UHGV virus genome: UHGV-1380528
Length of the DNA stretch: 47,910 nt
Reading direction: 5' to 3' (one strand)
From: a virus
The notes below the pieces were generated by a model. It ran no database searches, was not told where the DNA came from, and saw only the letters and a program-made list of their open reading frames with translations. Of the stretch, positions 657-46,707 are shown in pieces. Made by a program: the position numbers and the translations under genes. How positions within the stretch are numbered: the first letter of the stretch is position 1; each line of letters opens with the position of its first letter.

Positions 657-2059
657 TATTCAGGTGCCTCCATATCAAAATCTTCTTCGGCACGGTTCGG
701 CTGGAACCCACCGGAAATCGGAGCCGCTTTACTGGTCAGCGCATAGGTTTCACGCAGCGCTTCGCCAGTCAGCGCATTCACAGCGGATTCCGGTAGCTTC
801 AGCTCAGCCATAATGGTGGCGCGCATTGCGGTTTCTTCCTGTGCGGCATTGGCTTGCAGTTGTTCGCGCAGAGTTTTGTTTTGCGCCTCCACATCGGCCA
901 GTTTCTGGTTGACTGCGGTCAACGATTCCTGAACCGGCTTGAGGGCATCGGCTAATGCAGCCTGTAATTCCTCGTTAGTCATTGAGATTTCCCCTTGAGT
1001 TGTTTTTACCGGTTCAAGCTCTGTCTTATAAACAGCCTTAACCCGTTCACCGACTAATTGTACCACATCATTTATAATAACGTAGGACTGCATATACTTG
1101 ACGCCATCAATCTCAACGCCAAACTTATCATCATAAACAGCAAACACAAAAGGCCAGCTATCCTGGGATAACTCCTCTTTTATTTTTCCACGTATCTGAT
1201 CGGCAATCTCATCAAATGACAGGTCACTATTTCTGGTGATGTAGTTGATGGCACGCTGCCACCATTTGATTTTGTTTGCACTTTCGTCTGGCATTGCCGA
1301 TTCCTCAAGGTTAACTACAACACGCTCAATGTCTTCGCCGTTAGCAGCAAAGATACCGACACCATCAGCAGGGCCGCCAGCACCGGGAATACCAGGCGGA
1401 AGAATGGCAAGGTGGTCCCACTCCATATTACGGGCAATCCAGGAATATTTTTTGCCCTTAGAAGTTCCCGACGCCTGCTCACGGTTGAGTAGCAGACCGG
1501 TAGACACCTGAACAGGTTCAGCATCGGCGCTGTTAACTTTGAGTCCATCAATACGCGACAGCAATTCCCGGCCCTTACCAGAGCGCTCAGCCACCACCTT
1601 ATTAATATAAAGGTCTACCAGCGCCTTGCTGCCGTCATGAGATGAGTTCTCAATCCATGCACCAACGCTGAACTGATTGGCTGCTCGCGTCATGTTTGCT
1701 GACACATATTTGCCATCAATCTTCGGGTGGTCATATGGCGCCGGTTTCCCGTCAAGACCATGGAATGACTTTTTAATCTCATCGCCAGGGTACAGGCCGC
1801 CATTCATGACAATATCATCCACCACCGGCACAACATTCTTGATGACATAATGCGGGTCGCCATCAATGATTTTTTCACTGATATTGCTGGCTGAGTTGAT
1901 GGTATACAGGATGTTAACCTGTAGTTTATTATTCATGTGCTTGAATGCCTCCACCTCAGCAAGGCGCTTTTTCGCCGCCTCTTCGGTGTCGTACTCGCCA
2001 AACTGGTGCGAGCCATCCTTAGATTTAACGACCCACTTGTCGCCAATTTTGACAATCAT
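656..2059 (-). CDS. prohead protease / scaffolding fusion protein
   Basis: 467 aa; sits between head morphogenesis and decoration/capsid genes; C-terminal coiled-coil ([19 protein letters not shown]...[13 protein letters not shown]) typical of scaffold. Confidence 0.5.
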
Positions 2060-2074
2060 GACATTTCTCCGCGC

Positions 2075-2197
2075 TTACTTTATGCCCGGATTATAACACA
2101 CCATGAATATGCACCACGAAACGGACGCGAGAAGGTAAAGCGGAGATGCGGTAAAAGCGAAAAGAGTAGCAAAGAATGATATCAGTATGATTGGCAT
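2075..2197 (-). CDS. small hydrophobic peptide (40 aa, MPIILISFFATLFAFTASPLYLLASVSWCIFMVCYNPGIK)
   Basis: AGGAGG RBS 8 nt upstream of ATG at 2197; not in 60-aa ORF track; lies just upstream of protease-scaffold gene. Confidence 0.3.
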   Translation of the reverse strand: MPIILISFFATLFAFTASPLYLLASVSWCIFMVCYNPGIK

Positions 2198-2921: not shown

Positions 2922-3397
2922 GACTGACGCGCCCCAGCAAGCAACTTCTCAAACATCATCCTGTCACGGCTCATGCCAAACGGGATAATCTCCTGCCAGT
3001 AATACTTCCATGCTCCGCCGGGGAGCATTTCGCGGTCAACCTGACCAATGCTTGACAGATAGCGCATGCGTGCCTTGAGGATGGTGTAGCTCACGCCAAT
3101 GGCGGATGATATCTGTTTGCTTTTGCTGCCCGGGTGCGCCTCAAGATACGTCTGAATTGCCAAATCGAGCGCGGTATTATCGGGATTGAGGAAATACTTA
3201 AAGCAGCGCCTGCCATAACTGACGCTTTCCTCTTTAATAATAAATCCCATGCTCTCCAGCTCAATCAGATAACCAGTAACACTGGCTCGGTTTGTCATGC
3301 CAGTCTGCTTGCGTATCATGGCATTGGTTGCACCGCCGCAGCGCTCTATCACCGTGAGTATTTGCGTTTTAAAGTCCATTTGCGCGCTCCATTGCAT
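2909..3397 (-). CDS. winged-helix DNA-binding protein (MarR-like); start uncertain (3379/3397/3481)
   Basis: TQILTVIERCGGATNAMIRKQTGMTNRASVTGYLIELESMGFII wHTH-like segment; ORF track start at 3481 overlaps the Lar gene so an internal Met is more likely. Confidence 0.4.
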   Translation of the reverse strand: MQWSAQMDFKTQILTVIERCGGATNAMIRKQTGMTNRASVTGYLIELESMGFIIKEESVSYGRRCFKYFLNPDNTALDLAIQTYLEAHPGSKSKQISSAIGVSYTILKARMRYLSSIGQVDREMLPGGAWKYYWQEIIPFGMSRDRMMFEKLLAGARQSCGR

Positions 3398-3605
3398 CTT
3401 GCTTGTGGTCATCAGCAGTGTAGAGGTGGCCATTTCTGGTATTCCATTTAATGATTGCTGTCGCCGCAACCATCCAGTCATCAGTACGGCAGCCGCAATC
3501 CTGGCATACTACAAAATGCCATTGCCCATCCTTGCTCCGCATGGAATTTTCGCTACCGCAAAACGGACACTCTAGTAATTTCTCATCATTCATCATTGGT
3601 TTCAT
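3369..3605 (-). CDS. lar: Lar-family restriction alleviation protein (zinc ribbon)
   Basis: 78 aa with CPFCG...(x16)...VVCQDCGCRT motif matching Lar family (Rac prophage Lar-like) pattern. Confidence 0.55.
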   Translation of the reverse strand: MKPMMNDEKLLECPFCGSENSMRSKDGQWHFVVCQDCGCRTDDWMVAATAIIKWNTRNGHLYTADDHKQDAMERANGL

Positions 3606-41302: not shown

Positions 41303-41390
41303 GGATAGTTGGCTGAGAGGACGAAAGCAGTCGGTTGCTAACCGATAAACCGGAAACGGTTCACAGGTTCGAATCCTGTACTATCCGCCA
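41303..41390 (+). tRNA. tRNA-Ser (anticodon GCU), type II with long variable arm
   Basis: Manual fold: acceptor GGATAGT/ACTATCC, anticodon loop TTGCTAA, variable stem ACCG/CGGT, T-loop GGTTCGAATCC, encoded CCA. Confidence 0.75.
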
Positions 41391-41396
41391 CATTCA

Positions 41397-41473
41397 GCAC
41401 CATTAGCGTAATTGGATAGCGCAAGAGGCTTCTATCCTCTGGGTTTCAGGTTCGAATCCTGAATGGTGCACCA
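41397..41473 (+). tRNA. tRNA-Arg (anticodon UCU)
   Basis: Manual fold: acceptor GCACCAT/ATGGTGC, anticodon stem AGAGG/CCTCT loop CTTCTAT, T-loop TTCGAAT, CCA. Confidence 0.75.
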
Positions 41474-41476
41474 AAT

Positions 41477-41553
41477 TCCCGTTTAGCTTAACTGGTTAAA
41501 GCACCCGACTCATAATCGGATGATTACAGGTTCGAATCCTGTCGCGGGAACCA
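41477..41553 (+). tRNA. tRNA-Met (anticodon CAU; elongator/initiator/Ile2 identity unresolved)
   Basis: Manual fold: anticodon loop CTCATAA, T-loop TTCGAAT, acceptor with one 7:66 mismatch, CCA. Confidence 0.6.
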
Positions 41554-44481: not shown

Positions 44482-45297
44482 ATGACATCTCTCGGAAAAA
44501 TTTACTCAGACAAAGAAACTCGCGGCGGAATCGTGGTCAACAAAGGTTATCAGGTTCCTGTCGACCAGCTTTATCTTGAGCCAGGCTACAACATCCGCGA
44601 AGCCGATGAGCAGCACGTTGAATACTTCGCGCAGTGCTGGGAATCAGGCCAGCCAATCCCGGCGTTAACTGTTATTCCTGATGCTGACGGAAAGCGCATT
44701 AAGATTCTTGACGGCCAGCATCGTTATCTTGGCGCACTTCGTGCCATTGAGCACGGAGTACCAATTGCGCGCATTGAGTGCAAAGACTTCACCGGCGATG
44801 AAGCGGATAAAATCGCCTTCATGGTGTCTTCCAGTCAGGGTAAGCAACTCGACCCGCTTGAGCGCGCAAAGGCCTACGTGAGACTGAAAGGCTTCGGATG
44901 GACGAATGAAGAAATCGCCAAAAAGGTTGGTCGCTCAGTTTCTGATGTACAGATGCACCTGTCACTTGGTGATGTACCTGATGCTATCAAGCAACGTATC
45001 AATGCAGGACAAATCAGCTATGCCAACGCCGTTGCAGTGGCACGTGAGCATGGCGATGATGCCGTTAACGTTATTGATGCTGCCGTTGAGGAAGCGAAAG
45101 CGCAGGGCAAGGATAAGGTGACGGCGAAAACGCTCAAGGCCAAAAAAGTTAAGCCGATTGACCGTCTGATTCAGTTGCTGAAAGAAGCAGACCACATGGT
45201 TGTCGCTGAGGGGCATGTCGCACAGGAGACAGAAGAATTTTTGCGCCTTCCTTCTGCGGAATTGAATGAAGTGCTGGCGATTCTGGAGAAGCTGTGA
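44482..45297 (+). CDS. ParB/Srx-like nuclease domain protein
   Basis: KILDGQHRYLGALRA ParB-box signature; GAGGAAAAG RBS; coupled to downstream MTase. Confidence 0.65.
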   Translation: MTSLGKIYSDKETRGGIVVNKGYQVPVDQLYLEPGYNIREADEQHVEYFAQCWESGQPIPALTVIPDADGKRIKILDGQHRYLGALRAIEHGVPIARIECKDFTGDEADKIAFMVSSSQGKQLDPLERAKAYVRLKGFGWTNEEIAKKVGRSVSDVQMHLSLGDVPDAIKQRINAGQISYANAVAVAREHGDDAVNVIDAAVEEAKAQGKDKVTAKTLKAKKVKPIDRLIQLLKEADHMVVAEGHVAQETEEFLRLPSAELNEVLAILEKL

Positions 45298-46001
45298 TGA
45301 TTATAAATGAAGATGTGCAATTGATTCATGGTGATTGCCTGGAAGTTATGAGGTCTATTCCGGCAGGTAGCGTTGATTTGGTTTTGTGCGACTTACCATA
45401 TGGCACCACTCAGAATAAGTGGGATTCAATAATTCCATTTGGTGATTTATGGAATTCTTATAACCGTGTCTGTAGTGGTTTGATAGTGCTTACAGCGAGC
45501 CAGCCATTTAGTAGTGCGCTTGTTATGAGTAATGCATCAGGATTTAGATACGAGTGGGTGTGGGTGAAAACAAAAATAACTGGCGTTTTAAACGCCAAGA
45601 GAATGCCAGTAAGAAAACACGAGCAAATACTAGTTTTTGGTAATGGTAAAACATATAACGCACAAGGACTAGTGAGAAAAGGGACGAAAACAAAGCAGGG
45701 TGGGTGTAGTAGTAATTATGGCATCCGATCGCACGAAGATTATGTGCAGGAATGGACAAATTGGCCGCGAGACGTTTTAGAGATAGCGTCATAAGGTAAA
45801 ACAGTACACCCCACCCAAAAACCAGTCGCACTTATGGAATATCTTGTAAGAACGTACACCAATGAAGGTGAAACAGTGTTGGACAACTGCATGGGCAGCG
45901 GAACCACCGGCGTGGCGTGCGTGAATACAGGGCGCAGATTTATAGGAATCGAAAAAGATGATGGGTATTTTGAAGTGGCAAAAAAAAGGATTTTAGGATG
46001 A
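45294..46001 (+). pseudogene. beta-class DNA N6A/N4C methyltransferase interrupted by in-frame TAA at 45792..45794
   Basis: N-part has DPPY motif (LVLCDLPYGT); after TAA the same frame continues [13 protein letters not shown]...[15 protein letters not shown]...GRRFIGIE (AdoMet motif I). Confidence 0.6.
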
Positions 46002-46174
46002 ACCACGAACAATTCATAGAGAAAAACCTGCGCGAAAAACTTCCAGGCATCGACAACGCGGCCATAGAGGCCGCAATTACCCACCACAGGCGCAACCAGA
46101 GTGAAAATAAAGGCAAGATTTTCGATGAATGCCTGAGGGTTGCAAAACAACACATGATAAAGGTGAAGTGATGA
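45998..46174 (+). CDS. small protein (58 aa)
   Basis: ATGA overlaps with flanking genes. Confidence 0.35.
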
Positions 46175-46707
46175 AATTAAAAATCAGCAAATTACTTCTT
46201 GAAGGCGCGTTGATGTTCCATGCCAAACAGGATGTTCGCTATTACCTGAATGGCATTTGCTTTATGCCTGATGGTCGCGTTGCCGCTACTGACGGTCATC
46301 GCGCCATGATTGCCAGTAAGCATGAAAATAAATTGAAAGATAACGTTATCGTTTCTGTCAGCAAGTCGCCAACTAAGCGTTATGCGTATGCTCTACTGGA
46401 CACCAAAACAGGTATTGTTACTTACCATGACGAGCATGAAATCATGGTAGGCGCTGGTATCTGTTCTGAGATTGATGGTCGATTCCCTGATATTGATCGC
46501 ATTATTCCAAAGCAGACCGCGCCAACAGAGCAGATTGGATTTAATGCCAAGTATCTGGCAGATGTTGAGAAGCTGGCAAAGCTGTTTAACCCGAAGTATG
46601 AGGCGGTACTATTTGAGCTTAATGGAAACACCAGCGCCGCCGTTGCAAACATCAGTGCGTCTACTGGCGAGACTGCAAAAGTTATCGTTATGCCGATGAG
46701 GATTTAG
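46171..46707 (+). CDS. truncated DNA polymerase III beta sliding-clamp (DnaN) homolog, 178 aa
   Basis: Recalled alignment to E. coli DnaN: QDVRYYLNG, ATDGHR, DGRFPD..RIIPK, IGFNAKYL(A)DV and C-terminal VIVMPMRI match DnaN domain II plus C-terminal half of domain III; domain I absent. Confidence 0.65.
   Translation: MKLKISKLLLEGALMFHAKQDVRYYLNGICFMPDGRVAATDGHRAMIASKHENKLKDNVIVSVSKSPTKRYAYALLDTKTGIVTYHDEHEIMVGAGICSEIDGRFPDIDRIIPKQTAPTEQIGFNAKYLADVEKLAKLFNPKYEAVLFELNGNTSAAVANISASTGETAKVIVMPMRI

Follow-up and report, generated by a model that had tools for sequence, protein, structure and literature searches.

In a Klebsiella-type siphophage from the gut, a DNA methyltransferase gene is interrupted by an in-frame TAA, and the locus is probably best explained as a recent nonsense pseudogene of a dispensable accessory methyltransferase of the beta class. 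The event is ordinary accessory-gene decay in a well-known family and involves no new mechanism. It is proposed to have proceeded as follows: a cargo slot between a ParB-like gene and a gene of 57 codons would have held a beta-class N6-adenine or N4-cytosine methyltransferase, in which a G-to-T change at 45792 would have turned a conserved glutamate codon (GAA) into TAA, ending translation after residue 165. The product would keep the DLPY motif and the target-recognition region, would lose the AdoMet-binding half, including the HPTQKP loop and motif I, and would be unable to methylate DNA. Since phages of this group can do without the gene, its loss would be tolerated, and the phage DNA is presumably left unmodified by this enzyme. 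The whole stretch of DNA that was analysed (UHGV virus genome UHGV-1380528, 47,910 nucleotides) is called the window; all coordinates refer to it, and those of the locus are collected in Table 1.

Table 1. Features of the interrupted methyltransferase locus, with positions in the window
Feature	Position	Strand	Evidence or remark
ParB/Spo0J-like DNA-binding protein gene, 271 aa	44482..45297	+	Left border of the cargo slot, conserved
Methyltransferase, N-terminal part, 165 codons, ending at the premature TAA	45297..45794	+	PF01555, PHROG 67, DLPY
Premature stop TAA	45792..45794	+	Alignments with the alleles L004 and L009
Rest of the methyltransferase frame, 68 codons and TGA	45795..46001	+	PF01555 (E 1e-22); HPTQKP, MGSGTT
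Sole ORF with a start codon 3' of the TAA in this frame, 55 aa	45834..46001	+	Begins after HPTQKP; a separate gene in the JGI annotation
A8 homopolymer near the methyltransferase 3' end	45980..45987	+	Length differs among alleles (7, 8 or 9 A)
57-aa gene of unknown function, conserved	45998..46171	+	PHROG 4439 (E 2e-21); right border of the cargo slot

Three contigs (L005, L006 and L008) run unbroken from the end of the window into its start, spanning the junction from 47910 to 1, which shows that the genome, of about 47.9 kb, is complete in the window and circularly permuted. The phage is a Klebsiella/Enterobacteriaceae siphophage from human faecal metagenomes. One carrier of the TAA allele is a 48,051-bp contig of JGI dataset 3300045988 with a terminal overlap of 141 bp; a preprint describes a viral genome of this dataset as coming from a co-assembly of human faecal samples. 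The sequences flanking the methyltransferase were 90-95% identical to the cultivated Klebsiella siphophages DP01, VLCpiS13b/c, ZCKP8 and KpV2811, and matched Vibrio phage pYD38-A and E. coli phage C1 as well; the 700 bp of the methyltransferase itself were absent or replaced in these flank-matching genomes. A literature search found no paper on this phage lineage or on the TAA allele.

Two further features of the genome were recorded. A tRNA cluster at 41303..41553 (+) comprises Ser-GCT, Arg-TCT and Met-CAT, and the relative VLCpiS13b is annotated with Met and Arg only. The second gene 3' of the methyltransferase (46171..46707, +) is annotated in conflicting ways in relatives, as a RusA-like Holliday junction resolvase or as a DNA polymerase III beta subunit/sliding clamp; against PHROGs its product matched phrog_3007 (RusA-like) with E 2e-58 and phrog_947 (processivity factor) with E 5e-12.

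The gene on the left of the slot ends with TGA at 45295..45297 and had been called a ParB-like nuclease in an earlier note on this DNA. The first half of that name is justified: the protein matched Pfam HTH_ParB (E 4e-11, 43.4 bits, cut-off 22.6), Pfam KorB (E 2e-6, 27.8 bits, cut-off 22.3) and PHROG 1033, 'ParB-like partition protein' (E 1e-86), and it aligned with Spo0J (1vz0) over residues 41-193, where its DGQHRYLGA stands opposite the GERRYRAA of the arginine patch (GxxRxxA). The word 'nuclease' found no profile match and proved to be a database label carried by one cluster member only. The match to TIGR03187 (DGQHR) was weak (E 0.002), that to TIGR00180 lay under its cut-off, and Pfam ParBc was not detected in the N-terminal 123 residues with E values of up to 10 allowed. 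Fusions of ParB domains to methyltransferases have been reported, for example among the methyltransferases of Wolbachia prophages. As in the fusions of ParBc and N6_N4_Mtase domains found in phages and plasmids, a ParB-family gene here lies beside a PF01555 methyltransferase. Unlike in the fused systems, the two are separate genes that overlap by one base, as translational coupling would allow, and the ParB-like protein, which has a helix-turn-helix domain, belongs to the Spo0J/KorB type and gave no Pfam ParBc match.

The methyltransferase ATG at 45297 overlaps the TGA of the ParB-like gene by one base. The whole frame (45297..46001) reads from MIINEDV to EIAS, meets the TAA, and is then open to KKRILG and a TGA at 45999..46001, which overlaps the ATG of the 57-aa gene (ATGA). 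Pairs of long, adjacent open stretches in the same frame are common (29 pairs in the window), and this stop was flagged as non-random because one protein family runs on across the TAA, not because of the pair of open stretches itself. Against the Pfam family PF01555 (N6_N4_Mtase), the N-terminal part alone gave a weak match (E 0.005, 17.3 bits, below the cut-off of 26.7) over profile positions 1-130, and the C-terminal part alone covered positions 160-221 at the E value given in Table 1. When the stop was read through, the joined parts matched with E 7e-29 and 101.7 bits (cut-off 26.7) over the entire profile (1-221 of 221). The N-terminal part also matched PHROG 67, 'DNA methyltransferase' (E 1.5e-30). 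The position and frame of the interrupting TAA had been read correctly in the earlier note, and PF01555 is continuous across the stop.

That note had also placed a catalytic DPPY upstream of the stop, and HPTQKP and an AdoMet-binding FxGxG downstream. All three locations were right, and HPTQKP (45807..45824, residues 171-176) was as described. The letters of the other two differ: the catalytic motif IV reads DLPY (45390..45401, residues 32-35), which is invariant in close homologs, and motif I is MGSGTT (45891..45908, residues 199-204) and not a literal FxGxG. The circularly permuted motif order of the beta class, with motif IV N-terminal and motif I C-terminal, is present, but not in a single polypeptide, the TAA standing at codon 166. 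The gene is therefore a pseudogene of the PF01555 family and not a working member of it.

The length of the A run near the 3' end determines the last residues and the stop of the methyltransferase, and also its overlap with the ATG of the next gene. With eight A the window ends in KKRILG; the allele L009 ends in KKGF, which fits one A fewer, and phage C1 has one A more.

Homologs were searched for in a large protein collection, where 8000 were scored at E values of 1e-20 or lower; each of the 120 listed among these was one undivided protein, 225-260 aa long. Among GenBank phages, a single stretch covering 80% or more of the query was found in 833 records. The residue aligned with the stop lies five residues before the invariant HPTQKP and was Glu in 35 of 40 homologs, Gln in three and Asp in two. 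Two naturally separate genes meeting at this boundary had been named in the earlier note as an arrangement that would speak against a broken gene; this arrangement was rejected, since the homologs are single ORFs and the other split copies that were found are broken elsewhere.

Three intact proteins were members of the 90%-identity cluster of the truncated product. The closest intact alleles, L009 and L004, were 98-99% identical to the N-terminal part at the DNA level. L009 (Logan ERR11565385; a 44.8-kb contig of a related phage) carries a 232-aa gene in the same slot, directly 3' of the ParB-like gene, has only two differences from the window in the 495 bases that precede the stop, and carries G at 45792, giving GAA. 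L004, nearly identical over the central 400 bp, likewise reads GAA at this codon. From these alignments, the stop is read as a single G-to-T transversion at 45792 that changed GAA (Glu) to TAA. All residues that are invariant among the 22 closest homologs are kept in the window and the downstream frame is open, and the mutation is therefore recent. Of the options raised in the earlier note, a recent nonsense mutation is the one that these alleles favour.

Downstream of the stop, the window differs from both L009 and L004, mostly at third codon positions, and mosaic ends are found throughout the methyltransferases of this slot; the divergence is therefore attributed to recombination between functional alleles and not to decay after the stop. 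The intact alleles of the same slot (L009 and those of the Klebsiella phages VLCpiS13f and vB_Kpn_F14) share with the window the position directly after the ParB-like gene, the overlapping start and stop codons, and the common termini MIINEDV... and ...GIEKDD.YFE.AKK. They differ from it in being uninterrupted (232-256 aa), and compared with the window they are mosaics in the central or 3' part. Scans of viral, metagenome and genome contigs for the 43 nt surrounding the stop, in which the mutated base was left free (N), gave no match. In E. coli genomes and plasmids, the only matches were distant ones, confined to the conserved 3' third, and no source of the allele came from them.

The effect of the truncation was considered on an AlphaFold model of an intact homolog (P0001; pLDDT 80.5). 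The break falls just before the HPTQKP loop, and the part beyond it comprises a helix (173-183), a strand with motif I (189-192), a helix (199-207), a strand (210-215) and a C-terminal helix (218-236). The best Foldseek matches of the model were CcrM, M.BceJIV, M1.HpyAVI, M.MboIIA and M.RsrI (E about 1e-15 to 1e-13), so that this close homolog has the fold of the solved beta-class enzymes. Judged on this model, the lost part corresponds to the AdoMet-binding half of the Rossmann-like fold, and by the established architecture of the class the 165-aa product would not bind the cofactor. The truncated enzyme is thus most likely dead, as far as the loss can be read from the predicted fold.

The solved enzymes CcrM (6pbd), M.BceJIV (8urk), M1.HpyAVI (5hek/5hfj), M.MboIIA (1g60) and M.RsrI (1eg2) have the same motif order as the window. 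They differ from the window copy in lacking its nonsense codon and share 22-30% identity with it, the sequence matches lying mostly within the C-terminal third. Solved relatives with different targets (GANTC, GAGG, GAAGA, GAATTC and N4C enzymes) matched about equally well, and no target specificity was assigned for this reason. No restriction gene lies next to the window methyltransferase, as is usual for orphan methyltransferases of phages.

Three other explanations of the stop were weighed, of which two would leave the gene intact or working. According to one, the TAA is a sequencing or assembly error, GAA being the real codon in a phage whose methyltransferase is whole. The single-base difference inside an otherwise flawless gene would fit such an error, as would the origin of the sequence in a large metagenomic co-assembly. 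However, an exact-protein look-up found the identical 165-aa product on nine contigs, six of them of 20-50 kb, from three different pipelines and at least three accessions (Logan, including SRR2583988 and others; JGI 3300045988; ENA ERZ27304691). The three loci that were fetched were 100% identical to the window over 2.7-6.5 kb, and a one-off assembly error, the possibility raised earlier, is unlikely because of this identity. The same clone with T at 45792 was recovered by several assemblies; the samples are likely to be independent, although the Logan and ENA contigs may come from overlapping or related read sets. The change is moreover a substitution outside a homopolymer. Poor sequence quality revealed by other split genes was also discarded: four scanned same-frame pairs were neighbouring genes or had no family match, and no split gene was present among the six other pairs, from the 29 in the window, that were scanned or recognised as flanking. 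An error is accordingly considered very improbable.

To about the same small degree, it could be supposed that the gene is still functional, either through low-level readthrough of the TAA or through a 165-aa piece and a separate C-terminal piece forming a two-subunit methyltransferase. The fully intact downstream frame, with every invariant residue kept, is in keeping with this supposition. DNA methyltransferases made of two polypeptides exist (M.AquI and M.EcoHK31I, both C5 enzymes), and three PHROGs families (phrog_12862, phrog_18293 and phrog_8769) have about the length of the N- or C-terminal piece, which suggests that such pieces recur in the annotation of phages. On the other side, TAA is the commonest genuine stop of the genome (26 of 46 long ORFs), and ARAGORN found only the Ser(GCT), Arg(TCT) and Met(CAT) tRNAs in the window and no suppressor tRNA; stop reassignment or suppression was rejected on these two grounds. 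The first in-frame start past the TAA is the ATG at 45834, which lies after HPTQKP and falls midway along a modelled helix, and no Shine-Dalgarno-like or purine-rich sequence precedes it (upstream letters CCCAAAAACCAGTCGCACTT), so that a complementing C-terminal piece would not be expected to be expressed. The closest alleles are uninterrupted, and the other split copies have different lesions in different places, with no conserved split point. Nothing was therefore found in favour of the regulated readthrough or split expression that the earlier note had offered as an option. The third explanation accepts the loss of function and concerns its cause; it is taken up below with the other broken genes, after the slot in which some of them lie.

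A survey of slot contents covered 79 IMG/VR loci with a gene for the ParB-like protein. The 57-aa gene (PHROG 4439) lies 3' of the ParB-like gene in nearly all of these relatives, and the distance between the two genes ranged from 3 to 1451 bp, with more than 20 different lengths. Some slots were empty and others contained various small ORFs; nine loci carried a C5-cytosine methyltransferase, in some cases together with an endonuclease VII gene, and four a beta-class methyltransferase. Some methyltransferase was thus present in about 13 of the 79 relatives, and most loci had other cargo or none; a conserved module of ParB and methyltransferase was rejected for the phage group on this census. 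The adjacency of the two genes had been presented as a recurrent phage architecture; in this phage group it is not a conserved functional unit, the methyltransferase lying in a hypervariable slot.

The beta-class methyltransferases of the slot were of only 42-65% identity; their first approximately 20 and last approximately 35 residues were nearly identical and their middles differed. This pattern of shared ends and differing middles fits exchange by recombination through the gene ends, and from the sequences the near-identical ends look like recombination handles for the exchange of cassettes. None of the 81 features annotated in the cultivated relative VLCpiS13b is a methyltransferase, and the gene is therefore dispensable in the phage group.

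Other methyltransferase genes of this kind were also found broken. In the same slot, Escherichia phage C1 carries a related allele with a 1-nt deletion in a T run and an indel in the terminal A run, and the matches of phage S192, whose genome has the same length, were identical to those of C1. The metagenomic contigs L012 and L013, of two ENA samples, have a different TAA, at the Glu of LMEY. A further locus (L011) retains only a 3' remnant of the methyltransferase and may be misassembled. Elsewhere, the Felixounavirus homologs of SEP1 and GEP101 are split by frameshifts at yet other positions, and the met2 gene of a Wolbachia prophage is truncated by a 2-bp deletion (PMC3089641). The genes of C1/S192, L012/L013, SEP1 and GEP101 and the Wolbachia met2 resemble the window in being accessory adenine-type methyltransferases with a small lesion and a recognisable remainder. 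They differ from it in that each is broken at a different site, mostly by frameshift, and none has a TAA at codon 166.

The L011 remnant, on a 2812-bp contig of JGI 3300076556, occupies positions 1534..2161, starts at HPTQKP and abuts an inverted gene of the capsid region (DUF6260); this junction represents either a rearranged phage or a chimeric assembly. In PHROGs, the best match of the N-terminal fragment was a family of 149 positions of 'unknown function', and several short 'methyltransferase' families matched the C-terminal third only. Broken methyltransferase genes seem to be common enough in phages to have seeded PHROGs families of their own (phrog_12862, phrog_18293 and phrog_8769). 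The feature that recurs is breakage without a conserved split point, and this may reflect relaxed selection, homopolymer sequencing errors or selected loss.

Selected loss is the substance of the third explanation, by which knock-outs of the slot methyltransferase would be favoured repeatedly, because a methylated genome is a liability (type IV restriction) or because the enzyme is toxic or costly. It would find encouragement in the number of disrupted alleles: about three to four of some nine distinct beta-class alleles of the slot are broken (that of the window, C1/S192, L012/L013 and possibly the L011 remnant), with lesions that differ from one to the next, the intact ones being F14, VLCpiS13f, L009, L024 and L059. 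The Felixounavirus homologs are repeatedly split too, and the TAA clone occurs in several samples. Yet these numbers are small and come with no background rate for comparison, the homopolymer frameshifts may be sequencing errors, and relaxed selection on an optional gene gives the same pattern. Adaptive loss is for these reasons regarded as an unlikely cause, though a less remote one than an error or a functional split gene. Similarly doubtful is the related idea that the slot serves as an on/off site for epigenetic host-range adaptation to Klebsiella or E. coli hosts with methylation-dependent restriction. The preferred reading remains a tolerated nonsense mutation in a dispensable gene.

The earlier note had concluded that the methylation state of the phage DNA, and with it the anti-restriction status of the phage, is in question. 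This concern is fair, and it is softened by the methyltransferase-free cultivated relatives and by two properties of the window, as follows. The product of 3372..3605 (-) was 63% identical over 78 aa to a 'Lar-like restriction alleviation protein' of Klebsiella phage VLCpiS13b, and from this similarity it may possibly provide an alternative anti-restriction function. GATC occurs at 50 sites in the whole window, compared with about 210 expected under a maximal-order Markov model; this ratio (0.24) was the lowest among 4-bp palindromes, the next being that of CTAG (0.45). Such avoidance suggests that GATC-specific restriction or Dam-related processes have long exerted pressure on the genome, and this pressure would not depend on the broken methyltransferase. 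No second methyltransferase was found in the window with C5, PF05869 (Dam) and beta-class seeds (a seed-based search and not a profile scan of every ORF).

For annotation, the 165-aa and 55-aa ORFs should be treated as one methyltransferase pseudogene, and it should not be taken for granted that the phage methylates its own DNA. The locus is an example of a hypervariable slot, beside the ParB-like gene, into and out of which various kinds of methyltransferase move by recombination at their common ends and where they are often broken. If the losses were selected, the slot would offer a simple natural system in which to study how escape from classical restriction is traded off against escape from methylation-dependent restriction.
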